DNA of 64,000 nucleotides from an uncultured Solirubrobacterales bacterium (GCA_963716445.1 OY970313.1:422731-486730), one strand, 5' to 3'; positions 27,331 to 51,643 are shown, counted from the stretch's first letter. Made by a program: numbers and translations. The notes: generated from the letters alone by a model not told the origin.

Positions 27331-27363
27331 AACCGTACCTAGCAGATCGGCCTGTGCGGGTCG

Positions 27364-35294: not shown

Positions 35295-36059
35295 ATGATC
35301 AGCTCTCAAACAGGTCCCGTTCGGCTCGCGATCCTCGACGCCGACTCGGGCTTCGCCAGGGTGGTGACAAATCGCGCGGAGAGCGCAGGCTGGCAGCTGC
35401 GCCGTTTCGAGGCGCCCCCGCCGGTCGAGGAGTTCGCCGCGATGAAGGTCCACGCGCTGATCGTCGACTTGGCGATGCTCGGGCCGGACGCCTGGCGGTA
35501 CCTGGAGCAGGTGGCGAGTGCGGTGCCGGCACTGGGGATCGTCGTCGCGACCGGCCGATCCAGCGTCGCCCAGCGCGTTCGCGGGCTCAGGGCCGGTGCC
35601 GACGACTGGATGACCAAGCCCTGCCATCCCGAAGAGGTCCTGGCGCGGGTGGAAGCCGTCGTGCGCAGGCGCCAGGCAAACGACCGTCTCGCGGCCGAGC
35701 CGATTGCGGCCGGCGAGCTCGAGATACGCGCCGATCACTTCCAGGCGTTCGTCGACGGGCGCGGCGTCGACCTCACCCGCCGCGAGTTCGAGGTGCTGCA
35801 GCTGCTGGCCTCGGCGAAGGGCAAGGTACTCCAGCGCGAGGAGATCTACCAGCAGGGCTGGGGCTACTCGATGGCCCACGGCGACCGCTCGGTCGACGTC
35901 TTCGTGCGCAAGCTCCGACACAAGCTCCAGGTCGCCTCGCCGTCCTGGCGCTACATCCACACCCACTTCGGCGTGGGCTACCGGTTCGAGCCCGAGCCCA
36001 TCCCCTCAGGCGACGAGCCGATCGACGAGCCGTCCGAGCCGGCCGCATCGCCCGCGTGA
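35295..36059 (+). CDS. OmpR/PhoB-family response regulator (receiver plus winged helix), no adjacent kinase
   Basis: Receiver residues (ILDAD, IVDLAM, VVATG, TKP) and a Trans_reg_C domain (LTRREFEVLQLL...RSVDVFVRKLRHKL...IHTHFGVGYRF). Confidence 0.85.
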   Translation: MISSQTGPVRLAILDADSGFARVVTNRAESAGWQLRRFEAPPPVEEFAAMKVHALIVDLAMLGPDAWRYLEQVASAVPALGIVVATGRSSVAQRVRGLRAGADDWMTKPCHPEEVLARVEAVVRRRQANDRLAAEPIAAGELEIRADHFQAFVDGRGVDLTRREFEVLQLLASAKGKVLQREEIYQQGWGYSMAHGDRSVDVFVRKLRHKLQVASPSWRYIHTHFGVGYRFEPEPIPSGDEPIDEPSEPAASPA

Positions 36060-36142: not shown

Positions 36143-36487
36143 ATGCTTGCCCTGCCGCCGACATCGCGGCCCTCGGACGAGGAAGTCCGGATCGAGAACG
36201 TCGATATCCGACCTGCGGAGCTGCAGGTGCTGATCGACGGACGGCGAGCCGGCCTCACCGTGCGCGAGTTCGAGCTCTTCTACGTGCTCGCGCAGCGGCT
36301 CGACCGCGTCGTGCAGCGCGAGGACATCTACCAGCTCGTCTGGGGCGGCAAGATGCCGCGGCGCGATCGCTCGGTGGACGTGCTGGTGCGCAAGGTGCGG
36401 CACAAGCTCGAGCTCGCCGCACCCGAGTGGGCGTACATCCACACCCACTTCGGCATCGGCTACCGCTTCGCGCCCGAGCGGCGCTAG
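36143..36487 (+). CDS. Stand-alone OmpR-type winged-helix DNA-binding protein (no receiver domain)
   Basis: LTVREFELFYVLAQ...RSVDVLVRKVRHKLE...IHTHFGIGYRF, about 60% identical by eye to the C-terminal domain of 35295..36059. Confidence 0.75.
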   Translation: MLALPPTSRPSDEEVRIENVDIRPAELQVLIDGRRAGLTVREFELFYVLAQRLDRVVQREDIYQLVWGGKMPRRDRSVDVLVRKVRHKLELAAPEWAYIHTHFGIGYRFAPERR

Positions 36488-36562: not shown

Positions 36563-37345
36563 TCACTCGAACGACCCCGCGTTGCCCTGTGCCTTGTTGA
36601 AGGCACAGCGGAACAGCTCGGGCTGGCCGACGGGCTTGCCGCCCGCGAAGCCACCGCGGTCGCCGTTGTCGTAGACGGTGACGTAGTGGAGCGTCTCCGG
36701 CGACGGGTTGGCCGGCACAGGCGCCGGGTCGGGCTCCCCGGCGCGCGGGTCGCCGCGCGAGAGATCGCTCACACCCTGCGAGCCGGCGGCGCGGGCCCCC
36801 GACGCGGTGGTCGTCAGCGTGGCGCTCATCTCGCGGCGGTCCTCGAGCCCGTCCGTCGGGTCGACGTCGGTAGACGCGGTCACCTCGTTGTCATCGACGC
36901 GCCCGGCGAGCTTCACGCGTGGCGCCGCACCGATCAGCTGCGCGGCGGTCGGCAGGTAGCCGCCTAGCTCCGTGCACGCTTGGGTGGCGAAGAAGTAGTC
37001 GTTCTTGCCGATGTCGCCGCCCACCACGGGGTAGGGGCTGGTCATCAGGCAGACCGTTCCGAGGTCGACCGTCTCGGGCGCGCAGCGGTCCAGCAATGCC
37101 CGCGCGCGGCGGCCGCCGACGCGGTCGGCGTTGCGGGCGCGACGCACCTTCGGGATCGCCGCCGCCGGGAACCTCGCGCGGGCGTCGAGGCGCAGCAGGC
37201 CGAACTTCCGCGGCTTCAGGCTCGGCCCCGGCAGCGACCGGTTCTTGGCCGCGTCGGACTCGGCCGTGGTGGAGAGGACGACCGCGACGAGGGCCACGAA
37301 CAGCGCCGAGCAGGCGAGCAGGCTCGAGAGGCGGGGGTTCGTCAT
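36563..37345 (-). CDS. Membrane-anchored or secreted protein, last gene of the giant operon (C-type-lectin/DUF1566-like segment, weak call)
   Basis: ATG 37345 follows AAGGAG and overlaps the upstream stop (ATGA). TM segment MTNPRLSSLLACSALFVALVAVVL, then YFFATQACTELGGYLPTAAQL. Confidence 0.65.
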   Translation of the reverse strand: MTNPRLSSLLACSALFVALVAVVLSTTAESDAAKNRSLPGPSLKPRKFGLLRLDARARFPAAAIPKVRRARNADRVGGRRARALLDRCAPETVDLGTVCLMTSPYPVVGGDIGKNDYFFATQACTELGGYLPTAAQLIGAAPRVKLAGRVDDNEVTASTDVDPTDGLEDRREMSATLTTTASGARAAGSQGVSDLSRGDPRAGEPDPAPVPANPSPETLHYVTVYDNGDRGGFAGGKPVGQPELFRCAFNKAQGNAGSFE

Positions 37346-40300
37346 TGCGGGCTCCTTTGGTGTCGGTCGGTACGGATGAAGGCTGGTGCGGGGGCGCGGC
37401 GACTGCGGGCGCCGGGCCCGCCGCGAACCGATGCGCCGGCCACTGCGGCGAGCAGGACGAGCGCGAGCAGGTACGGCGGCACGGTCAGGCCGCCCTCCTC
37501 GGACGCGTAGCGCGAGAACGCATGCGACTCCTCGATCGCCGCCTCCTCCTCGCGTTTCTCCTCGACCTGATAGGTCCGCGCCGGCGCGCCGCCTGGCGGC
37601 AGCGGCCGCACGATCGGCGGTGGCGGGGGCGGGGGGATCGCGGGCACGGAGGACGCGGCGCCGGCGGCGAGCGGCACGAACGGGGCGGCGGCGACGGCCT
37701 GCGGCGGCGGCGACGGCGCCAGCGACGGAGAGTTGGGCGCCGGCGGCGTCAGTGGCGGCGGCTCGAAGCTCGGCGGCGGCCCGCCGCCCGCCGGTGCCGG
37801 CCCCGGCGGAGCCGCGGGCGGCGCGGTCGGTGGCGGCGCCGGGCGCTCGAAGCGGTCGGGGCGCAGCGGACGGGTGCCGCATGGGCGCTGGACGCTGCCG
37901 TCGAGGACCGTGACGCGCTCCGAGTACGAGAAGCCTCCGGCGCTGATCGTCACGGTCGTCGTGCCGGCGTTGAAGGGGCACAGCAGCCCCGATGCGCCGG
38001 CGCTGACGACCTTGTCGTCGGGTCCGATCAGCGGCTTGCGCAGATTCGTCGAGTTGGGGTCCTGGGCGACGAAGTCGGCGATGTCGGGGTCGGAGGAGGT
38101 GAAGCGATACTCGGGCGAGATACGCGTCGAGCAGCCGGAGACCGTGCACTGCTCGGGCGGGAAGGCCGTGTAGGGGTCGCCGCCCGACGGATCCGGGTTG
38201 CCAGAGCCGGCGGATGCGCGTCCCCAGCGGTCGCCACCGCGTGGCCGGCGACCGAGGCCGCGAAAGAGCGCAGGCCGCGAGCGGCGGAGCAGCGTGCCGT
38301 CGGTCGCCTCCAGCGACAGGTCCTCGATCACCGGGATCAGCCGCGCAGTCACCGGTGCCCGATTGGTCGCCGGGTCGCGCTGATGGGCGTGCACCTCGAG
38401 CAGCAGCACGCCGCTGTCGCCGAACAGCGAGTCGGGCGAGTCGATCCCGATGACGCTCGCGACGGGCGAGCGGTAGCCGAGCGTGCCGGTGCCGAAGCTG
38501 GGGATCGTCTCCGCGGCGCCGGCGGGCACGCGCGTGAAGCGGTTCTCCTCCGGACGGTCGTAGACGTAGGCCGAGACGCCCTTCTCGACCAGCAGCCGCG
38601 CGACGACGTCGCCGTCGCTTGCGACGTTGAGCTTCGGCGTGAAGTGGCTGTTGAGGTCGCGGTTGCCCATCACGACGACCGGCACGCCGTCGGCCCGCGC
38701 GTCATCGAGGACCGCCGCCAGCCAGGGCAGCTGCGACTCGTCAGGGTTCTGGTGGGCGTCGCTGGCCGCGAGCGAGCCGCGCGAGTTGTCGATCACGACC
38801 ACACGCACCCGGCCGCCGGGGCCGTCGCCGTCGAACGCGTAGTGGGTGCGCGCACCGGCGCCGGGGGCGGCGCCGGGAATGCCGTCGTTCGAGATGCCGG
38901 TGGGTGGCGACGCGCCGCCGAGCGGCGCGGGGAACGCCGAGAACGAGCCCTTGAACGCCGGCGCCCCGAGCGGCGAGGCAGCGTCGCTCGAGCCGAGGGC
39001 GGGGAACACCGGCAACGCCGGCTGCGAGGCGAGCAGCGAGGCGAGGCGCAGCCCGTCGCCGGAGCCGAGGCCCGTGCGGACGCGGTTGCCCGTGTAGAGC
39101 AGCGCGCGCGGCCCGTCGCCGCCGCGCATGCTCGCGACCGTGCGCAGGGCCGCGGCGAGGGTGCGGTCCGGCCCGATCGACTGTGGCGCGAGATCCGTGC
39201 ACGGACCGTCGCACTGAGCGTGTCCGGCGACCGCGAGCCGCGCCGGGCCGGCGGGCATCGGAACCGGCGCGGTGCCGGCGGCGTCCGGGGGCGTGGCGGC
39301 ATCGCCGTAGCGGTAGATCCCAGCCGTCCGCACCCGGCTACGGATCGCCCGCCCGCCGCCGTTGCGTGCCGAGGAGCCGCGGCCGGCGGCGTCAGCCTCG
39401 CCGCTCCAGCCGCCGATCGCCCAGCCGTTGCCGGCTGCGTCGAGCGCGAGCGCCAGCACCGGGTCGCTCTTCAAGGGCCGGTCGGCGCCCGAGCCGGCGA
39501 ACGCGGTCCGCTGCTCGTCGACCCAGCCGGAGTCGGTCTCGCGCAGCAGGTAGCCGTCGCCGGGCAGCTGGAACGGCGGGAGGATCGGTGGCGGGACCGT
39601 CGGGTCCGGCTCGGGCAGGTCGTCGGCCGGCGGATAGGAGAGCTGAGGGACGACGGAGAGGACCGCCCGGATCGGGCGGCCTGGGGCGCTCGACCGGAAC
39701 GCGGCCGCCGCGACAGCGGTGGACCCGGGCAGCGGCTGGCTCGAGAAGCGCCAGGGGGCCGTCGGGCCGTCGCGCTCGATCGCGATGTGGCGCCCGGCCG
39801 CGACGGCGCCCCCGTCGGGGAGGGCGGCGACCGCCACCAGCCGCGGACGGCCCACGCGCACGCTGTCGAGCAGCGCCCGGGCCGAGGCGTCGACGCGCCA
39901 GGCGCCGCCGTCGTTGACGAGCAGGTCGCCGCCCGCCGCGACAATCGCCTGACGTCCGGCGAAGGCGATCGAGGTCAGGTCGGCGCCCGCGAGCTCGGCG
40001 GGGAGGGGCTCGGGCTCCCAGCTCTTGCCGTAGCCGAGCAGCACGCCGCCCTTGCCGACGGCGTAGCCGCGGTCGGGGTTGCCGGGCTCGAAGGCGACGT
40101 CCATCAGGTTGCCCTCGAAGCCGATCGGGACGCCCGGGTCGGCGCTCCAGAGGCCGTCGTCGGCGTTCCATTGCCACATCGCGCCGAGGTCGCCGACGGC
40201 GTGGGCGCGCGACGGCTCCGGCCAGGCGACGCCCCGCAGCGTCGAGCGGTTGACGCTCCCGCTGGAGGAGAGCAGGAACTCGCGCCGCCAGCCGCGACCC

Positions 40301-41802
40301 GGCGCGTAGCGCGCGACGCCGCCGTCGGCGCCGACCGCCAGCGCCGGCGAGCCGAGCGAGCCCGGCGCGGCGCCCGGCGCCGTCGTCACGTCGGCGAGCG
40401 GGGCGCGCAGCGACACCGGCCACGGCCGCAGGCGGCTCGGCGCGGGCACGAACGAGACCTCGACCGGTCCCTCCAGCCACCCCTCGTCGGCGCTGGCGAA
40501 CGCCCCGCTGGGACGGAAGTTGCCGCCACCGCCAGGCATGCGGACGAATGCGCCGTCGGTCAGGCGCAGGTAGGTGCCGCGGTTGCTGTCCTCGGCCCCG
40601 CCCGGATCGAGCGGGTTGGTGACGACGCGGGCGCCGAAGCCGGGGCCGCCCCAGGCAAAGCTGCGGTAGCCGCCCTGGCGCGAGAGCCGGGCGCCGAGCG
40701 CCGCGTCGCAGGCGCTCGCGTCGCACCACTCGCGGGTCACCTGGCCCGACGCCGTGTCGTAGAAGAGCGTGACGTCGAGCTGCGCGGCGCCGATCGTCGC
40801 CGCCAGGTCGATCCAGAGCCCGCCCTCGCGGACCGTCAGCGGCTGCGCGCGGCCGCCGAGCGGCTCGACGTCCGCGATCGCGCCCGCCGGGGCGTCACGG
40901 TCGGCGAACGGCGTGCCGGCGAGCTCGCGCGCCACCCAGGTCGCGCCGCCGGAGGCCAGGGTCCGCTCGAGCAGGACGACGCTGCGGCCGAGGGCTGGAG
41001 CGGCCTCGGCGATCGCCCAGGCGTCGTCGGCGTCGGTGGCGTCGATCGCCAGGATGCGGAAGGCGCTCTCCGAGCCTGCCGGGATCTCGACCGCCTCGCG
41101 CGTCCAGTCCGTGCCGTCGAAGTGGAGGATCGCGTCCGTCACGGGGCGGCCGGTGGCCGCGACGAGGACGCCGGTGCGGTCGCCCTCGTCGAACGCGGCG
41201 ATCGCTACCCGGCCGGCGCCCTGGTCCTCGGCGATCGCCTCGGCGGGACCGTCAGGGCCCGCGGGCAGTAGGACCTCTGGGGAAGGCGGCGCGAGCGCCT
41301 GGAAGGTGTCCGCACCCGGATCACGGTGGAGCAGGACCGCCTGGCTGCCGACCGGCCGAGCCGTGTCGCGCCCGACGAGCACAGCGCCGCCACGCGCGGT
41401 GGTCCGCGCGGAGAGTGGGTTGGGCGCCGGACCGCGGTAGGGATTGCCCTGCTCGTCGAGCGGGGTCTCGTAGACCTGCCAGCCGGTCGCGTCGGTGTGG
41501 CGCAGGAAGGCGAGCTGCGGCTCGGGGCTCAGCGGGTTCGCCGGCGCCCCGAAGGGGAGTTGGCGATCGCCTGCGCGCACCGCCCCGACGCTGAGCGGGA
41601 GCTCGCGAAAGCCCCATGCCTCGCCAGGCTCCCCGCCGGGGGCGGCGCCCATCAGCGTCATGCCGGGATCGGCCGGTCCGAGGAGCGGCAGCGGCCCGAC
41701 CGGCGGGCCCGCCGTCTGGCTGCTGCCGGGCGGCGAGGCGGTCAGCACGAGCGCGAGCGCGGCGACGAGCACGCCGCCGGCCATCGGGGGCTTGCGGCTC
41801 AC
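37342..41802 (-). CDS. Giant secreted protein (1486 aa): Ycf48/BNR-like propeller blades, degenerate metallophosphoesterase-like region, Big_2-like Ig domain, Pro-rich stalk and C-terminal TM anchor
   Basis: GTG 41802 overlaps the upstream stop (GTGA) with GGAGG upstream. Signal peptide MAGGVLVAALALVLTASPP. Blade-like DVAFEPGNPDRGYAVGKGGVLLGYGKSWE, then VVVMGNRDLN, then NAGTTTVTISAGGFSYSERVTVL. Tail PPYLLALVLLAAVAGASV followed by basic residues. The upstream 416 codons of listed ORF 37342..43050 are rejected. Confidence 0.75.
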   Translation of the reverse strand: MSRKPPMAGGVLVAALALVLTASPPGSSQTAGPPVGPLPLLGPADPGMTLMGAAPGGEPGEAWGFRELPLSVGAVRAGDRQLPFGAPANPLSPEPQLAFLRHTDATGWQVYETPLDEQGNPYRGPAPNPLSARTTARGGAVLVGRDTARPVGSQAVLLHRDPGADTFQALAPPSPEVLLPAGPDGPAEAIAEDQGAGRVAIAAFDEGDRTGVLVAATGRPVTDAILHFDGTDWTREAVEIPAGSESAFRILAIDATDADDAWAIAEAAPALGRSVVLLERTLASGGATWVARELAGTPFADRDAPAGAIADVEPLGGRAQPLTVREGGLWIDLAATIGAAQLDVTLFYDTASGQVTREWCDASACDAALGARLSRQGGYRSFAWGGPGFGARVVTNPLDPGGAEDSNRGTYLRLTDGAFVRMPGGGGNFRPSGAFASADEGWLEGPVEVSFVPAPSRLRPWPVSLRAPLADVTTAPGAAPGSLGSPALAVGADGGVARYAPGRGWRREFLLSSSGSVNRSTLRGVAWPEPSRAHAVGDLGAMWQWNADDGLWSADPGVPIGFEGNLMDVAFEPGNPDRGYAVGKGGVLLGYGKSWEPEPLPAELAGADLTSIAFAGRQAIVAAGGDLLVNDGGAWRVDASARALLDSVRVGRPRLVAVAALPDGGAVAAGRHIAIERDGPTAPWRFSSQPLPGSTAVAAAAFRSSAPGRPIRAVLSVVPQLSYPPADDLPEPDPTVPPPILPPFQLPGDGYLLRETDSGWVDEQRTAFAGSGADRPLKSDPVLALALDAAGNGWAIGGWSGEADAAGRGSSARNGGGRAIRSRVRTAGIYRYGDAATPPDAAGTAPVPMPAGPARLAVAGHAQCDGPCTDLAPQSIGPDRTLAAALRTVASMRGGDGPRALLYTGNRVRTGLGSGDGLRLASLLASQPALPVFPALGSSDAASPLGAPAFKGSFSAFPAPLGGASPPTGISNDGIPGAAPGAGARTHYAFDGDGPGGRVRVVVIDNSRGSLAASDAHQNPDESQLPWLAAVLDDARADGVPVVVMGNRDLNSHFTPKLNVASDGDVVARLLVEKGVSAYVYDRPEENRFTRVPAGAAETIPSFGTGTLGYRSPVASVIGIDSPDSLFGDSGVLLLEVHAHQRDPATNRAPVTARLIPVIEDLSLEATDGTLLRRSRPALFRGLGRRPRGGDRWGRASAGSGNPDPSGGDPYTAFPPEQCTVSGCSTRISPEYRFTSSDPDIADFVAQDPNSTNLRKPLIGPDDKVVSAGASGLLCPFNAGTTTVTISAGGFSYSERVTVLDGSVQRPCGTRPLRPDRFERPAPPPTAPPAAPPGPAPAGGGPPPSFEPPPLTPPAPNSPSLAPSPPPQAVAAAPFVPLAAGAASSVPAIPPPPPPPIVRPLPPGGAPARTYQVEEKREEEAAIEESHAFSRYASEEGGLTVPPYLLALVLLAAVAGASVRGGPGARSRRAPAPAFIRTDRHQRSPQ

Positions 41803-43418
41803 CTCGCCTCCGCGACCTTGAAGGCGAGCTTGGTCGGGTAGCGCTCGCGGCTCAAGCGCAGCACGAGCTCGCGGCGGCCGGGACGGAACGTTCGCCGCGG
41901 CGTGCGCGCCACGACGCGGTTGCGGCGCTTGGCCAGCAGTTGCACCCGCGCACGCCGCGTCACGGTGAAGCTGACCGTCAGCCGCAGGCCGTCGAGCCGG
42001 GTACGGACGCGCTTGATCAGCGGCGCCAGCCGTCTCGGCGGCCTGGCCGGCGGCTCGGTGATCGGGTCGGGCTCGAGCGGCGGCGGCGCGAACAGCTGCG
42101 AGTCGTCCACGGGCGGGCGGTCCGGGATGAACTGCTCGGCCGCCTCGTTGGGCCGGAAGTCGATCGTCGTCTGGAACGCCGGATCGGTGTCGCGCGCCGG
42201 CCGCGTGCCATCGGTGTAGTGGAAGAGCCAGCCTGCCCAGGTGACCAGCCAGCAGTCGGTCGCCGACGTGCAGGCGATGCGCGCCGCCGCGCCGCGGCCA
42301 GCGCCGGCGGCTGGCAGTCGCGTGACGCTCGTCGTGCCGTCCGCCTCGATGCGAGCGACGGTTGCCTTCGAGTTGGTGCTGCGGCGCTCCCCGAAGGGCA
42401 CGACGGTCGCGAAGGCGGCGTTCGTGCCGGGGATCGCGGCGACGTCGCCGAAGCGGTCGGTCTCGCCAAGCCCCGTCTCGTCGAGCGCGATCTCCTCGAG
42501 GGCGCCGCCGGCGAGCCGCGCCGCCAGCGGTGGGCGCGGGACCGAGCCGCCCTCGGGCGCGGACGGGCCGGAGGCAGCGCCGCCGCCGACCGCCCAGAGG
42601 CTCGTCCCGTCGCTGTCGGCCGCGAGCAGCTCCGTCCCGTCGGGCGGGACGCCGTCGATCGGGACCGGCTCGAACGGGTCGTTGGCGAACGAGCCATCGG
42701 CGACGGCATGGATCAGACGCGGCGTCGGCTCGGGCTCGGCGAGGTCGACCGGCTCGCCACGCTCCTCCGGGCCGCGCCCGACGAACGTGGTCTCGTAGAC
42801 CGTGCCCGCATGAGCCTCCATGTCGCTGACCCCACGGCCCTGCGGGCCGTAGACGCTCTCGAGATCGGTCCCATCCCAGTGCAGGTGGAAGGCGCCGACG
42901 CGCTCGCCGAGCGGATCCTGGGAGCCGACGCCGCCGAACCAGCAGTCGTTCGGCCCGCTGCAGGTGGCCGAGTGCATCTGGCGGAACGGGTCGGGCGACT
43001 CGACCGCCGTGCTGTAGGAGCCGATGACCTGCCCGTCCTTGAAGCGGCACAGCGCGAGGCCCGAGCCGGCCCGCGGGCGGCTCGGCTCGCTGACCACCCA
43101 GAACTCGGTCGGCCCCGCCCAGGCGATGCGTGCGGTGTCGCCGGGTCCCCCGCAGACCGTGGCGAGCCGGCGCCAGCTCACGCCGTCGTAGCTGTAGAGG
43201 CCACGCGAGATCGTGTCGTTGCCCTCGACGGCCAGCAGCCCACGGTTCGCCGCCCAGAGCTTCAGGTCGCCGGGAGCGCCGAGCGGCACCTTGAACGGGG
43301 CGCCCGGCGGCGGCGGAGGCTGCTCGAGCCGCCAGATCGGGTCGCCGGCCTGGGCCGCCGCGGGCAGCGCCGCGACGGCGAGCGCGACGAGCGTGACGGC
43401 CTGTCGCCTCCTACTCAC
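41799..43418 (-). CDS. Secreted beta-propeller-like protein with a Pro-rich linker and basic C-terminal module
   Basis: Signal peptide [24 protein letters not shown]. Repeated blades of the form 'DCW.V...G.L.HY.DG'. The GTG overlaps the ftsH stop by 8 nt. Confidence 0.75.
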   Translation of the reverse strand: MSRRRQAVTLVALAVAALPAAAQAGDPIWRLEQPPPPPGAPFKVPLGAPGDLKLWAANRGLLAVEGNDTISRGLYSYDGVSWRRLATVCGGPGDTARIAWAGPTEFWVVSEPSRPRAGSGLALCRFKDGQVIGSYSTAVESPDPFRQMHSATCSGPNDCWFGGVGSQDPLGERVGAFHLHWDGTDLESVYGPQGRGVSDMEAHAGTVYETTFVGRGPEERGEPVDLAEPEPTPRLIHAVADGSFANDPFEPVPIDGVPPDGTELLAADSDGTSLWAVGGGAASGPSAPEGGSVPRPPLAARLAGGALEEIALDETGLGETDRFGDVAAIPGTNAAFATVVPFGERRSTNSKATVARIEADGTTSVTRLPAAGAGRGAAARIACTSATDCWLVTWAGWLFHYTDGTRPARDTDPAFQTTIDFRPNEAAEQFIPDRPPVDDSQLFAPPPLEPDPITEPPARPPRRLAPLIKRVRTRLDGLRLTVSFTVTRRARVQLLAKRRNRVVARTPRRTFRPGRRELVLRLSRERYPTKLAFKVAEAR

Positions 43419-45444
43419 TCTCCGCCTGCGTCTCGCGCGCCCGCGGCGCGTCGAGGTCGCCCTCGACGAAGGTGATCGGCGTCGGCTTGACCGTGGAGAG
43501 CACCGCGTCGAGCGCGACGCCCGAGAGCGTCTCCTGCTCGATCAGCGCCTTGGCGGTCTCCCCGACCGCTTCCCAGTTGCGGTCGAGGATCGTCTCCGCG
43601 CGGTCGACGGCCTCGCCGACGATCCGCTCCACCTCGCGGTCGATCAGCTCGAGCGTCGCCGGGCCGACGGAGCCCAGCTCCTGCAGCGACGCGCCGAGGA
43701 ACACCTCGCCGGCCTTCTCGCCGATCGTCACCGGCCCGAGCTCGGGCGACATCCCGTAGGACGTCACCATCTGGCGGGCCAGGCCGGTGGCGGCGTGGAG
43801 GTCGTCGTGGACGCCGGTCGAGACGACGCCGAACTCCAGGCGCTCGCCGGCATAGCCGGCGACGATCGCGATCAGGTGCCGGCGCATGTCCGGCTCCTGC
43901 ATCACGGTCGCGTCGCGATCGGTGAGCATGTGCGCGGCCGTGCCGAGCTGGCGCCCGCGGGCGACGATCGACAGCTTCTGCGCGGCTACCTTCTGGCCGA
44001 TCGAGCGGATCGCGACGGCGTGCGCGGCCTCGTGGATCGCGATCACCGACTTCTCGTGGCGGGTGAGGGGGTGGCTCTTGCGCGCCGGTCCCGCGACGAC
44101 GCGGTCGATCGCCTCCTCGAGCGCCGGCTGGTCCATCTCGCTGCGGCCCTCGCGCACGGTCAGCAGCGCGGCCTCGTTGATGACGTTCGCCAGCTCGGCG
44201 CCGGAGAAGCCTGAGGTGAGCTTGGCGATCTCCTCGAGCGAGGTGTCCGGCGCCAACGGCCGCTTGCCGCAATGCAGGCGCAGGATCTCGATCCGGCCGT
44301 GCACGTCGGGCACGTCGACGGTGACCTGGCGATCGAAGCGGCCCGGGCGCAGCAGCGCCGGGTCGAGGATGTCCGGCCGATTGGTCGCGGCGAGCACGAC
44401 GATGCCGGCGTCGCCCTCGAAGCCGTCCATCTCGACCAGCAGCGCGTTGAGCGTCTGCTCGCGCTCGTCGTTGCCCTGGCCGACGCCCGCGCCACGCTTG
44501 CGCCCAGCCGCGTCGAGCTCGTCGATGAAGATCAACGCCGGAGCCATCTTGCGCGCCTTCGCGAACAGGTCGCGGACGCGCGCCGCCCCGACGCCCACCA
44601 GCGACTCGACGAAGTCCGAGCCCGACAGCGAGAAGAAGGCCGCATCGGCCTCGCCGGCTGTCGCCTTGGCGAGCAGCGTCTTGCCGGTGCCGGGCGGGCC
44701 CACGAGCAGCACGCCCTTCGGCGCGCGCGCTCCCACCGATGCGTACTTCGAAGGGTCGGCGAGGTAGTCGCGGATCTCGCGCAGCTCGGCCACCGCCTCG
44801 CCCGCGCCGGCGACGTTGTCGAAGGTCGTGCGGTCGGGCGAGCTCTCGCCTCGCTTGCGCCCCTTGCCGGTGAACTTCGAGAAACCGGCGAAGGCGCCGG
44901 CGCCACCGTCCTGGCCGAGGCGCGTGAACAGCACGAACAGGCAGACGAGCAGCAGGATCGGCAGCAGGAACTGGACCAGGATCTGCTTGGCCGGCTTGTC
45001 GGCCTGCTGGTCGATCCCCACCGCCGCGCCGCTCGCCGTCAACCCCTTCAGGAGCGCCGAGGTCTGGGCGTCGGACTTCGGGTAGGCGGCGTAGAGCAGC
45101 TGGCCGCCCTTCGTGTCGACCACCACGCGGGCGTCCTGGTCGAGTAGCGTCGCGGCGTCGATGCGCTTGGCGTCGGCGAGCTCGGTGACGTCGCTGAGCG
45201 GCACCCGGTCGCCGTCCGAGCTCGGCTTGATGTCGCCGAGCAGCGCGAAGAAGAGAATCGTCAGCGCGAGCGACGCAACGAGCAGGAAAGTGTTGAGAGG
45301 GTCCTTCGCGAGCCAGCGCAGCACCGCGACGGCGCCCTCCCCGGCACGGCCTGCGACGTCGCCCAGGACACGGGCGACGTCGCGGGACTGCACCGGGGTG
45401 GGGCGCCGCGGAATGCGCCGGTCGCCGTTACCGGCGGCCGCCAC
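43411..45444 (-). CDS. ftsH: ATP-dependent zinc metalloprotease FtsH
   Basis: Two TM segments, Walker [14 protein letters not shown], Walker [13 protein letters not shown], and the HEAAHAV zinc site. Confidence 0.9.
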
Positions 45445-47311
45445 TTCCCTGCTTCTTGAGCTTGAGCGTGACCGTGCGGGTCGAGCTCTTCGGCGTTCCG
45501 CCCGTCGGCGAGAACGTCAGCTTGACCTTGACCTTCAGCTTGCCCTTCTTGCGCAGCAGCCTCTTCGCGGCGGCGCTCGGCTTGAGCCTGAGCTTGAAGG
45601 TGCCGGCCTTGTTCGCCGTCAGGACGACACGGCCGACCTTGATCTTGCGCTTGCCGGACTTCGCCGTGCCGACCAGCTCGAGCTTGCCCGCGCCCGGCAG
45701 CTTGACCGAGAGGGTCGCCGCGCCGGTCCTGGACGAGATCGTCGTGCGCGGCACCGAGAACACGTTGCTCGGCTTGGTCGGCGGCGGGGTGCTACCACCC
45801 GGCGGCGGGGTGCTCCCGCCCGGGGGCGGGGTCGTTCCACCTCCGCCTCCGCCGCCTCCGCCGGCGCCCTTGCTCCAGTCGATCGTGTTGACGCCCGCCT
45901 GAGCGAGCGCCTGGATCGCCTCGGGGAGCGGGGCGTAGTCGTTGCCGAACAGCTGGCCCTGAGTGCTGTCGGACAGCGCGTTCTGCCAGTAGTCCTTGAC
46001 CGTGCGGGCCTTGCCCTCCTCGGCCGGGACGTTGCCCCAGGCGTCGGCGTTGTCGTCGAACAGCAGGCCGTAGGTGAACGTGCAGATGCCGTAGCCCGCC
46101 GGGGAGTTTACGCCGCTGGTCTGCGACCAGTCGCCCAAGGTGCTGGCCGGCACGTTGGTGAACGTGGTGGCCTGGCAGTTGGCGCCCTTCAGCCCGTCGG
46201 TGCGGAAGCCGAACGCGTCGGCGGTCGGCTCGGTGAACGTCCCCGAGCCGTTCGGGATCTGCGTCCAGTAGGTGTCGTTGTCGTCGGCCTCTGGAGTGAT
46301 CGCGAGGCTCGGGCTGGCGTTGCGGGCAGTCGAGATGTCCGAGTAGCCCACCGAGCCGTCGGTGCTGATCAGCTTGCTGACCAGCGCCCCGTTGCCGTTC
46401 GAGCAGCCGCTGGTGAGCTGGTCGGTCGTGTCGGCCTCGCTGCCGGGGCCGTTCGGGGTGCCGGCGCAGTCGGCGCGCGGGCCGAATGTCGCTCCCGGCC
46501 ACTCACGGGTCCGGTTGGTGCCGGTCGCGTAGGTGGTCAGCCAGCCGCGGCCGCCGTTGATCGTGTTGAGGTAGTCCTTGAGGGTGAACGACGTGCCGGA
46601 GTCGTCGAAGCGGACGACGCGGATGATCGGGACGTTGCAATCGACGCCGTCGGCCGCGAGCTCGGGGAAGACCTCGGTCCAGTTGTCCGAGCTCGACTCC
46701 TTCGCCCAGATCGCCTCGAACTGCGCCTTGGTGAACCGCACGCGGATCACGTCGTCCGGCGTGGAGTTGCCGTCCTTGTCCTGCTCGGCCGTCTTCGCGG
46801 CTGTTGGCAGCAGGTTCACGTCGCAGCCATTGGGGAAGTTGACCAGCGGCGCCACCGCACCGACGCCGGCAGGCACCACGTGGACGACCGCGTTGTCGGC
46901 GGCGTTCGCGTCGGACGCTGGATCGCCGGTGGTGCCGGCGTTCATCTGGGCGACCTCGGCCGGGCTCGGGGCCTCGTCGGTCATGCCGAAGCGCGGAGCG
47001 AGCGAGCGGTCCTTCATCGCCGTGCGCCCCGCGCCACTGCCCTGGGCCTCGTAGGTGACCTCGATAGTCCCGAAGCCGGGGGTCCCGATGCAGAAGTGGT
47101 TCTTGAAGTTGAAGTTGAAGAGGGTGTGGGCGTCACGGGCGAAGGACGCGCCGCGGCCCGTGACGTCGGGCCCGGCGCACTTGCCGGTCGTGAAGGCCGC
47201 GTTCGCCTGAGGAGCCAGGCTGAGCGCGGCGAGCACCGCGGCGGCGAGGGCGATCAGCCCTGCTAGCGCGGCGCGAGAGCCCCATCGGGGGGCAAAGCCA
47301 GTGAGGCTCAT
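45428..47311 (-). CDS. PstS-like periplasmic phosphate-binding-fold protein fused to a Gly/Pro linker and basic C-terminal module
   Basis: ATG 47311 follows AAGGAAAGGAA, with a signal peptide. PstS-type motifs GRGASF, QGSGAG, RFDDSGTSFTLKDYL, DGSVGYSDISTA and GYGICTFTYGLLF. Then GGGGGGGGTTPPPGGSTPPPGGSTPPP plus a Lys/Arg-rich beta module. Confidence 0.8.
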   Translation of the reverse strand: MSLTGFAPRWGSRAALAGLIALAAAVLAALSLAPQANAAFTTGKCAGPDVTGRGASFARDAHTLFNFNFKNHFCIGTPGFGTIEVTYEAQGSGAGRTAMKDRSLAPRFGMTDEAPSPAEVAQMNAGTTGDPASDANAADNAVVHVVPAGVGAVAPLVNFPNGCDVNLLPTAAKTAEQDKDGNSTPDDVIRVRFTKAQFEAIWAKESSSDNWTEVFPELAADGVDCNVPIIRVVRFDDSGTSFTLKDYLNTINGGRGWLTTYATGTNRTREWPGATFGPRADCAGTPNGPGSEADTTDQLTSGCSNGNGALVSKLISTDGSVGYSDISTARNASPSLAITPEADDNDTYWTQIPNGSGTFTEPTADAFGFRTDGLKGANCQATTFTNVPASTLGDWSQTSGVNSPAGYGICTFTYGLLFDDNADAWGNVPAEEGKARTVKDYWQNALSDSTQGQLFGNDYAPLPEAIQALAQAGVNTIDWSKGAGGGGGGGGGTTPPPGGSTPPPGGSTPPPTKPSNVFSVPRTTISSRTGAATLSVKLPGAGKLELVGTAKSGKRKIKVGRVVLTANKAGTFKLRLKPSAAAKRLLRKKGKLKVKVKLTFSPTGGTPKSSTRTVTLKLKKQGSGGRR

Positions 47312-47384
47312 TGCGAGTTGTTCCTTTCCTTGACTGAACCGTTCGTCGCGAGAGTCGTCTCTATCCCTCCGGTCCGTCAAGTCA

Positions 47385-47450
47385 CTTCACGGAACTTCTA
47401 CGACGGCTTCACCATCGCTTATCCGACACTTCTCCAGATCGTCTCCAAAT
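47385..47450 (+). promoter_or_regulatory. Six phased boxes CTTCACGGAA CTTCTACGACGG CTTCACCATCG CTTATCCGACA CTTCTCCAGAT CGTCTCCAAAT in the only intergenic gap of the giant operon
   Basis: 10/12/11/11/11/11-nt units, 74-139 nt upstream of ATG 47311. Written on the + strand, so inverted relative to that gene. Confidence 0.5.
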
Positions 47451-47520
47451 GGGAACGGTGCGTTAGCGCCGGCGCCGAGCGCAACTGGTTGGGCCAACGC
47501 CCCGGAAGGGGAGAGGAGGC

Positions 47521-49521
47521 TTACTGACGCGTGCGACGCTCGTGACGCCGACCGCCTGCTCGGATGACGGCCCGCACCGAGGCGTTGAGGCCCCTCCCGC
47601 CCCGTGACGCGACGAAGGAGACGGCGATCCGGGCGCGGACCCGCCGGCGGCGGCGCAGCTCGGCGCGGTAGCGACGCACCGGGCGGAGCAGGATGCGCAC
47701 CGTCCCGGGCGCGCGGGCGCGCTTGGAGTCCGTGGCGAGCGTGCGCAGTCTGCGCGGCCTGCCGGCACGGGCGCGTGCGACGGCCTTGACGCCGCCGGCG
47801 GCTGGCACGGATACGGCCACCACGACAGAGCCGTCGCGCCGCGAGCGGGCGCGGGCCGATAGCCGCGGGCCGCCGCGGTCGGGGTCCTCCTCGATCGTTC
47901 CGTCGGGCCCTCCAGCTCCGGGACCGGCGGGCGGCGGCTTGGGCGGCGGGTCGGGCTGGCGGGTGGCGACGAATGCGTCGGCGCGCTGGTTGGCGTCGCC
48001 GAAGAAGAGGTTGCCGGCGAGCGACGCGAACGCGACGCGCCCGCCGTCGCTCGAGATCGTCACGCCGTTGAGGACGTCGGCGTCGATGTCGCCGCCCGCT
48101 GCCGAGCGGGTCACGCGCTCCAGCGTCCGCTCGACGAGGTCGACCACGTACAGCTCGCGTGCGGCCGGCACTGGGCGCGGATCGCCCACGAGCTGCAGCG
48201 CCGGCAGCGCGAAGCGGGTCCGGACGGTCGTGATCGCCAGATGGCGACCGCTCGAGGCCATCGCGACGCCGCTCAGCGGCGGACTCGTGGCCGGGTCGCC
48301 GTTGGTCGTGTCGCGCGTGAGCTCGACCGTCGCCTGCTTGCGGGCGGCCCCCGGTTTCATGTCGGTCACGAAGAGGTCGAGCCCCGGACCGGTGAAGGCG
48401 AGCGGGCGCGGTCCTGAGCCGGTGAGGAACGCCACCGTGTAGCCGTCGCCGCTGAGCGCCGGCAGCTGCGCGCCGATGCCCGCGCGGTTCGCCTCCTGGT
48501 CGGTCAGCGGCCCGTAGCAGGGACCGGTCGAGACCTGGTCGAAGACCGTGTCGCTCCCAGGCGGGCAGGCGGGGTCGTCAGGGTCCGCGAGGCCCGTCAC
48601 ACGGCGGGTCGGCGCGGCCGGCCCGTCGGCCACGCGCCGCCAGAGGTAGTAGAGGAAGCCCACGTCGGGGTTCTCGCCGCCGAGCAGGCGCGTCTGAGCC
48701 GCGGCGTTGGCGCCCGTCCAGGCGACCGTGGTGCCGTCGGCGCTGAGCGCCGCTCCGATCGCGCCGCCCGCCGGCTCGCCGCCGGGGGCCGTCCGCGTAA
48801 CCAGCGTCGTCGTGTCGGCAGCGCGGTCACGGAGCAGCACCTGGCCCGCGCCGGCGTCCGGCGCGCCGCCGGCCGGCAGGTCCGAGGCGACGTCGGTGCG
48901 GAACGCGACCCGCTGCCCGTCGGCGCCGATCGCCACCCCGCGCGAGACGTCGGCGCCGGGATTGCTGCCCGGAAGCGGGAAGGCGGGCGGGCCATAGCCG
49001 GCGGGCACGTCGCCGCCGTCGAGCGCCGAGACGAGATCGAAGGCGCCCGGCGCGCCGATCGGGACCGTCACGTCGCGCACGTAGACGTCGAGGTTGTCGT
49101 TGACGTCCGTGGCGACCAGCGACTCGGCCGTGGCGAACGCGACGAAGCGCCCGTCGGCGCTGATCGACGGGTTCGACGCTCCACGGCGCACGAACGAGTT
49201 GTCGTCCTCCTCGAAGAGGTCGCCGTCGGCGACCTTCTCGAGCGCGCGCGTCGCCAGGTCGAAGCGGAAGACGCCGCCCGCGCGGTAGCGGCCTGGCGGG
49301 TCGGGATCGTCGTCGGCGAAGAAGTTGCGCGCCCGGGTCTGCATCGCCACATAGCGCCCGTCGCCCGAGATCGCCGCGAAGACCGTCGCGTCGTCGCCCT
49401 GCTCGAGCCGGCCGAAGTCGGCCGAGACGATCTCGGCGCCGTTGCCGTAGAAGCCGGCGGCCGACGCCGGCAGGGCAAGCGAGACGGCAACGGTCGCGGC
49501 CAGCGTGCGCGCCGATCTCAT
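47521..49521 (-). CDS. Secreted TolB/PD40-like beta-propeller repeat protein with a basic C-terminal module
   Basis: ATG 49521 overlaps the upstream stop (ATGA). Signal peptide MRSARTLAATVAVSLALPASAA. PD40-like repeats ISGDGRYVAM and SISADGRFVAFATAESLVATDVNDNLDVYVRD. The upstream 242 codons of the listed ORF are rejected. Confidence 0.75.
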   Translation of the reverse strand: MRSARTLAATVAVSLALPASAAGFYGNGAEIVSADFGRLEQGDDATVFAAISGDGRYVAMQTRARNFFADDDPDPPGRYRAGGVFRFDLATRALEKVADGDLFEEDDNSFVRRGASNPSISADGRFVAFATAESLVATDVNDNLDVYVRDVTVPIGAPGAFDLVSALDGGDVPAGYGPPAFPLPGSNPGADVSRGVAIGADGQRVAFRTDVASDLPAGGAPDAGAGQVLLRDRAADTTTLVTRTAPGGEPAGGAIGAALSADGTTVAWTGANAAAQTRLLGGENPDVGFLYYLWRRVADGPAAPTRRVTGLADPDDPACPPGSDTVFDQVSTGPCYGPLTDQEANRAGIGAQLPALSGDGYTVAFLTGSGPRPLAFTGPGLDLFVTDMKPGAARKQATVELTRDTTNGDPATSPPLSGVAMASSGRHLAITTVRTRFALPALQLVGDPRPVPAARELYVVDLVERTLERVTRSAAGGDIDADVLNGVTISSDGGRVAFASLAGNLFFGDANQRADAFVATRQPDPPPKPPPAGPGAGGPDGTIEEDPDRGGPRLSARARSRRDGSVVVAVSVPAAGGVKAVARARAGRPRRLRTLATDSKRARAPGTVRILLRPVRRYRAELRRRRRVRARIAVSFVASRGGRGLNASVRAVIRAGGRRHERRTRQ

Positions 49522-51431
49522 CGAACGCGCACCCAGCGTCGCCAGACGGTCCGGTTGCCGGCGCGGTCGCGTGCGGTGACCCGCACGCGGTAGCGGCCGG
49601 CCGCGTCGTAGCCGTGCCGCGCGACGCGCGTCCGAGCAGCGCGAGCTCCGTCGCCGAAGCCGACGCGGACGGAGAGGCGCCGCAGCCCCGAGCCCGCTCG
49701 GCGCGGACCATCGGTGACGCGCACCGTCAGCGAACGGCCGCGGCGGCGCAGGCGGACCCGCGGCCCGTTGCGGTCGACCCGCAGGACGCCGGTCAAGCTC
49801 CCGGTCTCCTGGCCGGCGTCGTCGATGGCGAAGACCTGGATCCGGTGGCGGCCGTTCTCGACGTCGTCGCGCGTGAGGCGCGCGTGGAGGCCCCGGACGC
49901 CCTCGACCACCGGCTCGTCGTCGACGCTGACGGAGTACGTCACGCCGCCGATCGCGCTCACCGCCCGATCCCATGCGATCGGTATCCGCCGGCTGCGCCG
50001 CCAGCCGTCCGGTAGCAGCACGAAGAACGGGTCCGGCGGCGCGTCGACCACCGCCGCGACGATCTGGGCGCCGCTGCCGCTCCCCTGCCTCCAGGCGACG
50101 ATCGCATCGCCGAGACCGGAGCCACCCATCGTCAGCGTCCCGACGCCGCCGCCGCTCGGGGCGCTCAGGTCGGTCGGCTCGTCGACCCCGTCGGCGCGCC
50201 GCTCCTGAACGGCGACGAAGCCGGCGCCGTCGCGCAGCTCGCGCCACGCCGCCACGGCGGCGCCGGTCTCCGCGAGGTCGACCAGCGGGTCCCCGGCGAC
50301 GGAGCTGGTGCCGGCGTCGAGCCGCTCGGCGGGCCCGGTGGAGGCGTCGTTGCCGCTGGCGAGGAGCGTCGTGGCCGCCGAGCCGAAGCCGATCGCGAAC
50401 GCGCTCGTCGGGTCGACGGCGACGCTCGGCGGCCCAGGCGCGGTGTGCGGCGATCCGTCAGCCAGCCGGGCGCCGCCGAACTGCCCGGAGGTCTCGGCGA
50501 ACACGTCCGGGATCTCGTTGACGAAGATCCGTGCGGCCCCGAGCCTGCCGGCCTGCCCGGGCTGCTGGCGGAAGGCGATGGCTCCCTGGCCGAAGCCCGA
50601 GACGTCGAGCGAGAACGCGTCCGCGGCGCCTCGCAGGGGCGCTCCGCCGTAGGAGTCGGGGCTGGCTTGGAGTGGGATCCCGACCTGCGAGCCGAACACC
50701 CGCCGCGCCCAGATCCGGTCGACGAAGTCGTCGCCAGGCTCCTGCCAGGCGACGATGCCCTGGCCCTGGACGTCGATCCCGACCTTCGGCGAGTTGTCCT
50801 CGGCCGGCGTTCGCACGGGTATCGCCGGGTTGCGGTCGACCGGGCCGCCCATCACCGACCAGAGGCGGCCGTTGTAGCGCGCGAGGCGCACGTCTGCCCT
50901 GAGATAGCCGGGCGGGTTGGCGGAGCTCGTGTCGGTGACCACGCGGTAGACGAGGTAGGCCTGCCCGCCGCGCGCCATCGCCAGATCGGGGAAGGTGGCG
51001 CTCGCCTCGCCGACGTTGAAGTCGATCGGCACCGGCGCCTGGAAGCCACTCGATCCCGGGTCGAGCGTGGCCGAGAACAGCCGGTCGCTGTCGAGCCCAT
51101 GCTCCTGGACCCAAACGACCGCCAGCCGCCCGCCGTCGCCGGCGCCGATCCGCGGCCAGCTCGAGTCGAACGCCTGACCGACGTCCACCCGCTGGGGCGC
51201 GCTCCAACGGCCGTCCTGGAAGAGCGCGGCGAATACGTGGTCGTGGCCCTCGACCTGCTTGAGGTAGACGATCCCGCCGCTTCCGTCCTCGGACATCGCG
51301 GCGTCGGCGACCTCGACGATCGAGTCGGCCGGCCCGTCGATCGGCCGCACGTCGGAGACCACCGCCCCGGCGAGCGGCGCGGCGCAGGCGACACCGACGA
51401 GAGCGGTCGCTGTGGCGAGCGGCAGGCGCAT
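49518..51431 (-). CDS. Secreted repeat (propeller-like) protein with a C-terminal Ig-like/basic region; first gene of the giant operon
   Basis: Signal peptide MRLPLATATALVGVACAAPLAGA. Repeated '...G.(A/I)VVW(V/Q/R)' strands resembling 5787..7604. Confidence 0.75.
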   Translation of the reverse strand: MRLPLATATALVGVACAAPLAGAVVSDVRPIDGPADSIVEVADAAMSEDGSGGIVYLKQVEGHDHVFAALFQDGRWSAPQRVDVGQAFDSSWPRIGAGDGGRLAVVWVQEHGLDSDRLFSATLDPGSSGFQAPVPIDFNVGEASATFPDLAMARGGQAYLVYRVVTDTSSANPPGYLRADVRLARYNGRLWSVMGGPVDRNPAIPVRTPAEDNSPKVGIDVQGQGIVAWQEPGDDFVDRIWARRVFGSQVGIPLQASPDSYGGAPLRGAADAFSLDVSGFGQGAIAFRQQPGQAGRLGAARIFVNEIPDVFAETSGQFGGARLADGSPHTAPGPPSVAVDPTSAFAIGFGSAATTLLASGNDASTGPAERLDAGTSSVAGDPLVDLAETGAAVAAWRELRDGAGFVAVQERRADGVDEPTDLSAPSGGGVGTLTMGGSGLGDAIVAWRQGSGSGAQIVAAVVDAPPDPFFVLLPDGWRRSRRIPIAWDRAVSAIGGVTYSVSVDDEPVVEGVRGLHARLTRDDVENGRHRIQVFAIDDAGQETGSLTGVLRVDRNGPRVRLRRRGRSLTVRVTDGPRRAGSGLRRLSVRVGFGDGARAARTRVARHGYDAAGRYRVRVTARDRAGNRTVWRRWVRVR

Positions 51432-51520
51432 GGCAGCCCACCCTCACGCGCGTGAACAGCTCACTTGTAATCAACGCGCTACCGACTGGTTAAAGCGGAA
51501 CCTTCACTCGTTCGAGGCGC

Positions 51521-51575
51521 CTTCACCACTCCGTAGCCAGTTCTTATCCACACGGTCACGCGCCGTTTACCCACT
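51521..51575 (+). promoter_or_regulatory. Five 11-bp-phased boxes CTTCACCACTC CGTAGCCAGTT CTTATCCACAC GGTCACGCGCC GTTTACCCACT in the divergent pstS / giant-operon promoter region
   Basis: 69-123 nt upstream of the pstS ATG, in the same orientation as pstS. Resembles actinobacterial PHO-box direct repeats (GTTCACC-type). Confidence 0.5.
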
Positions 51576-51643
51576 CGAAGGCGGTCGCGCCGAGACTGGC
51601 CGCGTCCGAAGCACGAGAACCCGTCACCAGGAGTGACCCTCAG

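Follow-up and report, generated by a model that had tools for sequence, protein, structure and literature searches.

FtsH is a universal and usually essential membrane protease. In the FtsH-HflKC complex of Escherichia coli and in cyanobacterial FtsH-Psb29/Ycf48, this membrane AAA+ zinc protease is associated with proteins on its noncytoplasmic face; to our knowledge, apart from HflKC and the photosystem II (PSII) case, little is understood of what FtsH recognizes and of how it is regulated from outside the cytoplasm. Here, a cluster of seven minus-strand genes (designated g1, g2, g3, ftsH, g5, g6, and g7 in the order in which they would be transcribed) was analyzed in a 64,000-nt stretch of DNA from an uncultured Solirubrobacterales bacterium (GCA_963716445.1, OY970313.1:422731-486730), referred to throughout as the window. 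As in the described systems, FtsH is found here in the company of proteins predicted to lie outside the cytoplasm, one of which (g6) has Ycf48-type blades. Unlike those systems, the cluster has no SPFH/Band-7 domain and no photosystem, the candidate partners are an exported protein that is probably a propeller (g5) and a stalked, 1,486-amino-acid (aa) predicted type I membrane protein (g6), and the coupling is operonic and, as predicted from gene overlaps, translational, a kind of coupling not described for the other systems.

A second comparison is with the Pho operons of Actinomycetota (pstSCAB, PhoP/PhoR), with which the cluster shares phased 11-bp direct repeats that have a TGTGAA-like core and lie upstream of a pstS-family gene; the boxes of the array are found as well at the promoter of the canonical pstSCAB operon in these genomes. 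It differs from these operons in having seven consecutive units that end on a near-consensus -35 element, and in carrying ftsH and genes for giant envelope proteins rather than transporter subunits. FtsH has been linked to phosphate-starvation signaling in Synechocystis, where, in the account given in a review, FtsH1/3 lowers PhoU and is needed for induction of the Pho regulon (Krynicka et al. 2019, reviewed in PMC11287208). In Synechocystis the link is posttranslational and the genes are unclustered, whereas the link described here is genomic and regulatory only.

The components of the cluster belong to known families (FtsH, PstS, PD40 and PSII_BNR propellers, PKD, and the metallophosphoesterase fold), and operons controlled by Pho boxes and associations of FtsH with accessory proteins are likewise known kinds of system. 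A first-pass annotation of the window, made from the sequence alone, had held that no system of this kind was described; literature searches (FtsH and Solirubrobacter, Ycf48 in nonphototrophs, and FtsH/PstS operons) gave nothing relevant, and no description was found of the combination of an order-wide coupling, both operonic and translational, of ftsH to exterior propellers and a PstS paralogue, a seven-box array ahead of the operon, and a rearranged recurrence of this theme. We report that the cluster is conserved across the order, and propose tentatively that its core, g3-ftsH-g5-g6(-g7), is an operon under the control of an OmpR/PhoB-type regulator that forms a phosphate-status-controlled envelope module around FtsH. 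The gene for this protease is fixed in an operon with those for a predicted phosphate-binding protein and exterior propellers across a largely uncultured but abundant soil order. The analysis also defines a testable cis-element and provides the first domain assignments for g5 and g6, two large "hypothetical" families with more than 1,100 and more than 300 clusters of homologues, respectively, all of which are unnamed or hypothetical, the named sources being Solirubrobacterales.

A conserved gene cluster around ftsH

All seven open reading frames (ORFs) were found where the first-pass annotation had placed them (Table 1). The G+C content at third codon positions (GC3) is 0.92 to 0.95 in each of the seven genes and in every 300-nt subwindow, and is uniform along their length. 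The window as a whole has a G+C content of 66 to 77% (70 to 77% outside a stretch of lower G+C content described below). The uniformly high GC3 indicates that the seven ORFs are real genes and tells them apart from the many spurious ORFs in other frames. Every junction was as had been claimed: the g1/g2 and g6/g7 junctions are 4-nt overlaps at ATGA, the g5/g6 junction is a 4-nt overlap at GTGA, g3 and ftsH overlap by 17 nt, and the start of g5 lies over the stop of ftsH in an 8-nt overlap, while g2 and g3 are separated by a gap of 209 nt. The accompanying domain calls (PD40, Ycf48-like, Ig/PKD, Pro-rich stalk, and PstS-like) also held. Signal peptides or anchors had been assigned to all non-FtsH products; five of the six passed an N-terminal hydrophobicity threshold, and g2 lies just below it, its N terminus being a signal peptide as judged by eye. 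No paralogy was detectable between g5 and g6 or between g1 and g2, and the C-terminal domains of g2 and g3 were the sole related pair among those compared.

Table 1. Positions of the cluster genes and associated features in the window
Feature	Position	Strand	Size or basis
g1	49518..51431	(-)	637 aa
g2	47521..49521	(-)	666 aa
g3	45428..47311	(-)	627 aa
ftsH	43411..45444	(-)	677 aa
g5	41799..43418	(-)	539 aa
g6	37342..41802	(-)	1,486 aa
g7	36563..37345	(-)	260 aa
g6 residues 524-633, Ycf48/HCF136-type (PSII_BNR) blades	39904..40233	(-)	Profile match
g6 residues 836-1158, predicted calcineurin-like metallophosphoesterase fold	38329..39297	(-)	AlphaFold2 (AF2) and Foldseek
Box array and promoter-like site, g2-g3 gap	47370..47457	(-)	Seven 11-nt units and -35-like hexamer
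Divergent canonical pstSCAB operon	51644-55393	(+)	PBP_like_2 (5.7e-32), two BPD_transp_1, ABC_tran
OmpR/PhoB-family response regulator	35361..36059 (start uncertain)	(+)	Domain scan
Orphan OmpR/PhoB-type winged-helix protein	36143..36487	(+)	114 aa; Trans_reg_C only (Pfam E = 1.2e-19)

Orthologous loci were identified by scanning one genome per GTDB species with the g5 alignment, and synteny was established by tblastn. A total of 81 loci were fetched, of which 80 are distinct, all from Solirubrobacterales or Thermoleophilia metagenome-assembled genomes (MAGs) or from two cultured organisms, Solirubrobacter soli DSM 22325 and S. phytolaccae. Directly upstream of g5, ftsH was present in all 81 fetched loci; g6 follows g5 in 78 of the 80 distinct loci, and g3 precedes ftsH in 76. 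The remaining genes are found at lower frequencies, with g1 present in 67/80 loci and g7 in 46/80, and pstSCAB adjoins the cluster in 44/80. The overlapping stop and start codons on which the earlier proposal of coupling around ftsH was built are likewise conserved, the 8-nt ftsH/g5 overlap being kept in 58 of 80 loci and the 4-nt overlaps in 41 of 74 (g5/g6), 39 of 46 (g6/g7), and 33 of 51 (g1/g2). With its recurrence in 80 species-level genomes of one order and its conserved overlaps, the arrangement is far beyond chance.

Three arrangements of the cluster were distinguished. Type I (53 loci, the window's kind among them) has g1-g2 upstream in the same orientation and usually also g7 and an adjacent pstSCAB operon. 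Type II (18 loci) lacks g7 and pstCAB, and its g1-g2 pair occupies a downstream position on the other strand. In the third arrangement, seen in three loci, g1-g2 do not occur within 10 kb. The invariant core is therefore g3-ftsH-g5-g6, whereas g7 was found only in the arrangement with g1-g2 upstream. The seven genes had been annotated as a single operon, and they probably do not form a simple one: the 209-nt gap holds a conserved, apparently regulated promoter, and in 18 genomes the g1-g2 pair has changed place on its own, which fits a core with a separate promoter. No terminator was found after the g2 stop, where the downstream sequence folds no better than shuffles (z = -0.19), so that read-through from g2 into g3, and with it partial cotranscription of the seven genes, may occur.

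Phased 11-nt boxes upstream of g3

Upstream of g3 lies a strikingly conserved region. Within the window it contains seven consecutive 11-nt units at 47381-47457 (CGTTCCCATTT, GGAGACGATCT, GGAGAAGTGTC, GGATAAGCGAT, GGTGAAGCCGT, CGTAGAAGTTC, and CGTGAAGTGAC), the last of which abuts a -35-like TTGACG at 47375-47380. Seven consecutive units were found in 62 of 76 loci, using an alignment anchored on CGTAGAA (itself found in 62/76), and TTGACA is the conserved form of the hexamer across loci. It is followed by a conserved leader of ~60 nt and then by a GAAAGGA ribosome-binding site, kept in 70 of the 76 orthologous upstream regions, which supports the g3 start at 47311. From the 62 loci, a pooled unit consensus of (G/T)G(T/A)nA(A/C)(G/C)nnn(T/C) was obtained, in which position 2 is G in 99% of units and position 5 is A in 82%. 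The 11-nt unit resembles the PhoR site of Corynebacterium glutamicum, in which a 3-bp linker separates two tandem repeats of 8 bp, CCTGTGAAaatCCTGTGAA (PMC3353115).

A position weight matrix (PWM) was built from the array units with the window left out. Across 51 pstS promoters, matches were approximately 3.7-fold enriched over shuffles, and 11-nt phasing was seen there too. In the window, the four densest 120-nt clusters of matches were located at the g3 promoter, in the g1/pstS intergenic region (boxes at 51451-51628), in the promoter of the response regulator gene listed in Table 1 (cluster at 35195-35236, ahead of the gene), and at the g3/ftsH junction (weak scores). The array most likely consists of putative OmpR/PhoB-type, Pho-regulon boxes, which would place the operon in the phosphate regulon or in an OmpR-type regulon closely related to it. 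The boxes might instead be bound by the orphan winged-helix protein, whose gene is convergent with g7 and lies beside the cluster in 62 of 80 loci. A scan of 36 to 52 kb with a strict sigma-70 consensus, which is uninformative for a high-GC actinobacterium, returned no promoter.

FtsH and its genomic contexts

The identification of the ftsH product as FtsH, a membrane AAA+ zinc protease, is unambiguous at the level of sequence, in agreement with the first-pass annotation. It scores 639.8 bits against TIGR01241 (cut-off, 600) and matches the Pfam families AAA (2e-42), AAA_lid_3, and Peptidase_M41 (1e-41), with FtsH_ext found under its gathering score (E = 5e-4). Two transmembrane segments (residues 49-73 and 151-179) lie around an outer (periplasmic) loop of ~80 residues. 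The translation contains Walker A (GPPGTGKT), Walker B (IFIDELD), the second region of homology, and the zinc motif HEAAH; with all catalytic motifs kept, the protease is predicted to be catalytically intact.

Of all the genes in the cluster, ftsH is the most conserved, with a median identity of 81%, like that of pstB/pstC, which is compatible with an essential role. This bears on the strongest rival explanation, namely, that a single general-purpose FtsH resides inside an order-specific envelope operon and shares nothing with its neighbors other than expression. Such a housekeeping FtsH would be expected to keep all canonical motifs and to be highly conserved, as observed; many of the genomes carrying the cluster are single chromosomes of 2.4 to 3.0 Mb, in which one ftsH copy is plausible; and essential genes frequently sit within conserved operons for reasons of expression. 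It also agrees with the Pfam and NCBIfam scans, in which no Band_7/SPFH, HflKC-like, or other known FtsH modulator domain was found in the cluster proteins. However, the ftsH/g5 overlap preserved in 58 of 80 loci counts against it, as do the contexts of FtsH outside the cluster described below, and we consider this explanation somewhat unlikely.

The nearest full-length nonorthologue of the window FtsH (P0253) comes from a Dormibacteria-like lineage. Among MAGs with the label Solirubrobacteraceae, searches outward from FtsH identified type B (P0497/P0486) and type C (P0513), two further types that are 58% and 54% identical to the window FtsH, respectively; no contig was matched to a genome carrying the cluster. 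Since other kinds of FtsH in other contexts, such as P0513, occur in MAGs of this label, more than one kind of FtsH exists in the group, a point against the hitch-hiking explanation. The type B context includes an SLT-domain giant, with a propeller segment that matches g6 (hhalign, 94.6%), and, before FtsH, a gene encoding a g5 homologue of 574 to 638 aa (hhalign, 97.6%; E = 4e-12); FtsH is then followed by either a PF01663 phosphodiesterase or a 938-aa protein without a known family. The gene order differs from that of the window, as the g5 homologue precedes FtsH. A theme of FtsH, a g5-family protein, a g6-like propeller, and a phospho(di)esterase therefore recurs in a divergent lineage despite the rearranged order. 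Since the linkage survives a change of gene order, this argues against chance neighbors, and it is not predicted by pure hitch-hiking of ftsH.

Type C FtsH was located at 1966-4023 in locus L082 and at 3013-5070 in locus L083, with holB upstream, where it is flanked on one side by a gene for a CpsB/CapC-type phosphatase and on the other by a block of genes for glycosyltransferases and polysaccharide export. Separately, the window encodes an SLT/M23 wall hydrolase (57798-59390), the N terminus of which is 54% identical to the SLT giant beside type B FtsH in locus L084.

Exported proteins of the cluster

The first-pass annotation had described g3 as PstS-like, and this assignment was borne out by a match to Pfam PBP_like_2 (33.8 bits versus a cut-off of 27; E = 3.8e-8) and by a family profile of nine orthologues that matched PstS structures in the PDB at 1e-14 to 1e-7, including 8ods_A at 1e-14 and the E. 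coli phosphate-binding protein 1ixh at 2e-8. The phosphate-ligand positions within GRGASF, GSGAG, RFGxTD, and RxxRxDxSGT are invariant across the nine orthologues, which share 32 to 59% identity, and align to the PstS motifs; the E. coli PstS residues in these motifs we take to be Thr10/Phe11, Ser38, Asp56, Arg135, and Ser139-Thr141. Although g3 resembles PstS (1ixh and 8ods) in belonging to the type II periplasmic-binding-protein fold family and in its ligand motifs, it is twice the size, contains large insertions, ends in a Gly/Pro-rich linker followed by a basic beta domain, and is encoded apart from pstCAB. Against TIGR00975 it has an E value of 9e-17 but scores 61.1 bits, below the cut-off of 205. 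Because of this, and because a separate, canonical pstS heads pstSCAB in the window, g3 is predicted to be a secreted PstS-family paralogue and not the binding subunit of PstCAB.

The C-terminal domains of g3 and g2 are homologous (hhalign, 97%; E = 8e-11). This basic beta domain (45428-45800 in g3 and 47521-47890 in g2) comprises ~100 Lys/Arg-rich residues and has no Pfam family; it may represent a lineage-specific envelope-tethering module. In addition, g2 matches Pfam PD40 (23.6 bits versus a cut-off of 20.9), as in the PD40 propeller of TolB. Unlike TolB of the Tol-Pal system, g2 lacks the TolB N-terminal domain (no Pfam match to TolB_N) and a tolQRA-pal context (no tol or pal gene among the scanned neighbors), and neither single-sequence nor profile searches returned a useful PDB match. 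It is thus predicted to be secreted and to combine a PD40 (TolB-like) beta-propeller with the basic beta domain at its C terminus. In g1, a hydrophobic, signal-like N terminus is followed by an all-beta region without a family and a C-terminal PKD/Ig domain, the last identified by Pfam PKD_4 (E = 7.6e-8) and by a match of the g1 family profile to the PKD domains of ColH (E = 3.7e-5). The remaining small protein, g7, is N-terminally anchored and has four invariant Cys residues; single-sequence and profile searches gave no Pfam, NCBIfam, or PDB match for its family.

The largest product, g6, is composed of a signal segment, one or more propeller regions, a metallophosphoesterase-like domain, an Ig-like domain, and a Pro-rich stalk, in that order. 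The stalk is followed by a highly conserved acidic stretch next to the membrane, by a transmembrane segment at residues 1437-1462, and finally by a basic tail of ~24 aa; g6 is predicted to be a type I membrane protein. The degenerate metallophosphoesterase fold had been missed by the first-pass annotation. The sequence pattern of residues 836-1158 pointed to this fold, which an AF2 model then supported. The model, of residues 836-1320, had a predicted template modeling score (pTM) of 0.62 and a mean predicted local distance difference test score (pLDDT) of 58, with most of the domain region at 70 to 94. All of the top 20 Foldseek matches to this model in the PDB have the metallophosphoesterase fold (E = 5e-7 to 1e-2; probability, 0.97 to 1.0), with GAP50 (3tgh) the best (5e-7; 12% identity) and Lmo2642 (2xmo), acid sphingomyelinase, Mre11, and 5'-nucleotidase also represented.

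The canonical metallophosphoesterase motifs DxH, GDxxD, GNH(D/E), H, and GHxH were not found in g6. The corresponding strand-end positions, which were assigned by motif order and not by superposition, read AGH/N, TGN/S/GR, GSxD, GN/SR, and DRPEEN across 16 to 25 orthologues, and Pfam Metallophos had no match in g6 or the orthologues scanned. The domain appears to be without metal ligands and, because the metal-ligand motifs appear replaced and the Metallophos family is not matched, is probably noncatalytic. In this respect it is like GAP50, presumably a noncatalytic, membrane-anchored member of the fold that is devoid of metal-binding residues; it differs from GAP50 in having no sequence relationship to it (the 12% identity given above) and in its organism and domain context.

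The state of this domain affects a further explanation, raised as an alternative in the first-pass annotation, in which the cluster encodes a surface phosphate-scavenging complex: g1, g2, g5, and g6 would bind or hydrolyze organic phosphate or wall polymers, g3 would collect phosphate for PstSCAB, and FtsH would serve insertion or quality control. The phosphate side of this proposal gained support from the ligand motifs kept in g3, from the adjacency of pstSCAB in 44 of 80 loci, and from the Pho-type boxes common to the g3 and pstS promoters. The phosphoesterase fold of g6, the PF01663 phosphodiesterase beside FtsH in the divergent variant, and the genes for PhoX and the SLT/M23 wall hydrolase nearby are in keeping with it as well. 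The hydrolytic side fared less well, as the g6 domain apparently lacks metal ligands and a Metallophos match, its best structural match, GAP50, is one that we regard as noncatalytic itself, and no propeller of the cluster matched phytase or PhoX families in the Pfam and NCBIfam scans. Scavenging also offers no specific reason for the translational coupling of ftsH in the middle of the operon, and on balance we judge it unlikely.

The Ycf48-like blades reported in g6 were recovered at profile level, with the family profile of the region listed in Table 1 matching 8am5_S at E = 9.6e-8 and 5oj3_A at 4.5e-6, and PF14870 was detected in 19 of 25 g6 orthologues. Unlike Ycf48, which is a single-domain, seven-bladed protein of ~330 to 440 aa, g6 is multidomain. 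Solirubrobacterales are known as chemoheterotrophs, and no photosynthesis genes were present among the window genes scanned. The parallel drawn in the first-pass annotation with PSII repair, in which g6 and g5 would be exterior assembly factors and FtsH would remove damaged subunits of a membrane complex, is highly improbable: the profile-level blade match and the involvement of both Ycf48 and FtsH in cyanobacterial PSII biogenesis and repair favor it, but it relies on two to three blades (~110 of 1,486 residues) of a protein that scores 15.6 bits against the Ycf48 equivalog (PRK13684; cut-off, 326), PSII_BNR-type propellers are widespread in nonphototrophs, no candidate client complex was found among the window genes scanned, and the phosphate context is left unexplained.

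For g5, no Pfam, NCBIfam, or PDB sequence match to the family was found. With a shallow alignment as input, AF2 gave a poor model (pLDDT, 53), yet one that is all-beta and in which a basic beta-sandwich at the C terminus was predicted confidently. Foldseek matches to this model, used for fold class only, were to generic propellers (TM score, ~0.2), and g5 is probably an exported all-beta protein with a beta-propeller. Its signal segment starts MSRRRQAV, and the family consensus starts MSRR. This start resembles a twin-arginine export motif, which would imply that the propeller is exported prefolded. An apparent g5-g6 fusion of 2,036 aa (P0157) was considered as Rosetta-stone evidence and rejected; its junction, which runs from the g5 C terminus into the g6 signal segment, is frameshifted, and the probable cause is an indel introduced when long reads were assembled.

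Proposed role of the cluster

We tentatively favor the reading of g3-ftsH-g5-g6(-g7) as the core operon of an order-wide envelope gene cluster under an OmpR/PhoB-type regulator, in which a phosphate-status-controlled module is built around FtsH. The seven phased 11-bp boxes and the -35-like TTGACA/G would coregulate the operon with phosphate uptake. Activation of the g3 promoter is the favored direction, because the boxes extend from ~-112 to the -35 element, by analogy with OmpR sites at ompF. The g3 product would then bind phosphate outside the membrane, tethered to the envelope through its basic C-terminal domain. Through the overlapping stop and start codons, FtsH could be produced in a constant ratio to g5 and g6, and these two may act as extracytoplasmic partners or clients of the FtsH hexamer. 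Membrane proteolysis would in this way be tied to phosphate status, with FtsH either trimming Pho-signaling or transport components or assembling or turning over a surface complex, and g1-g2 would be a separable accessory unit.

Several observations weigh against this proposal. Membership of an operon and overlapping genes show coexpression and not contact of FtsH with g5 or g6, and an FtsH that is as conserved as pstB/pstC (81%) fits a resident housekeeping gene. The loss of metal ligands in g6 was read from sequence motifs and not from superposition, and the g5 model is of low confidence (pLDDT, 53). With regard to the promoter, the number of PWM matches within the window alone was not above that of mononucleotide shuffles, so the case for the boxes rests on their conservation and phasing; the orientation of the boxes relative to the gene at g3 is opposite to that of the strongest boxes at pstS; and a near-consensus -35 element could indicate repression rather than activation. 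In addition, pstSCAB is not adjacent to the cluster in the 18 type II loci.

A more specific form of the phosphate-controlled FtsH module can be formulated as a holo-complex, in which the small extracytoplasmic domain of FtsH is capped by a propeller scaffold of g5 and the stalked g6, with its apparently ligand-depleted phosphoesterase fold; this scaffold and the tethered PstS-like subunit would report the availability of external phosphate or phosphate esters to the protease, such that regulated proteolysis of components of Pho signaling or transport, and not a histidine kinase alone, sets the phosphate response in this order. We regard this version as distinctly unlikely. If the proteins of the module do interact, they would constitute a new class of extracytoplasmic FtsH partners, and the cluster would provide a direct genomic handle on a link between FtsH and phosphate that so far has been physiological only, in cyanobacteria. 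The value of the finding would rise sharply with a physical FtsH-g5-g6 complex or phosphate-dependent proteolysis, and experiments are feasible because two cultured Solirubrobacter strains carry the cluster.

Other features of the window

Further genes with products related to phosphate metabolism are distributed across the window and encode a Ppx/GppA exopolyphosphatase (10677-11636), a PhoU_div (DUF47) protein (34495-35076), and a PhoX-type alkaline phosphatase (59596-61173). Following pstB in the same orientation (55390-56106), the position where phoU often lies, is a gene for a 238-aa protein without a family and with a lipoprotein-like signal (LVIGGC). This protein is kept after pstB in 26 loci, with ~49% identity. 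A tRNA-Met gene is located at 12432-12505 and a phage-type integrase gene at 14968-15963, after which a stretch with a lower G+C content (0.66 to 0.69, versus 0.70 to 0.77 elsewhere) and few confident genes extends to ~29 kb. The region from 12432 to 29000 looks like a mobile element integrated at the tRNA gene.

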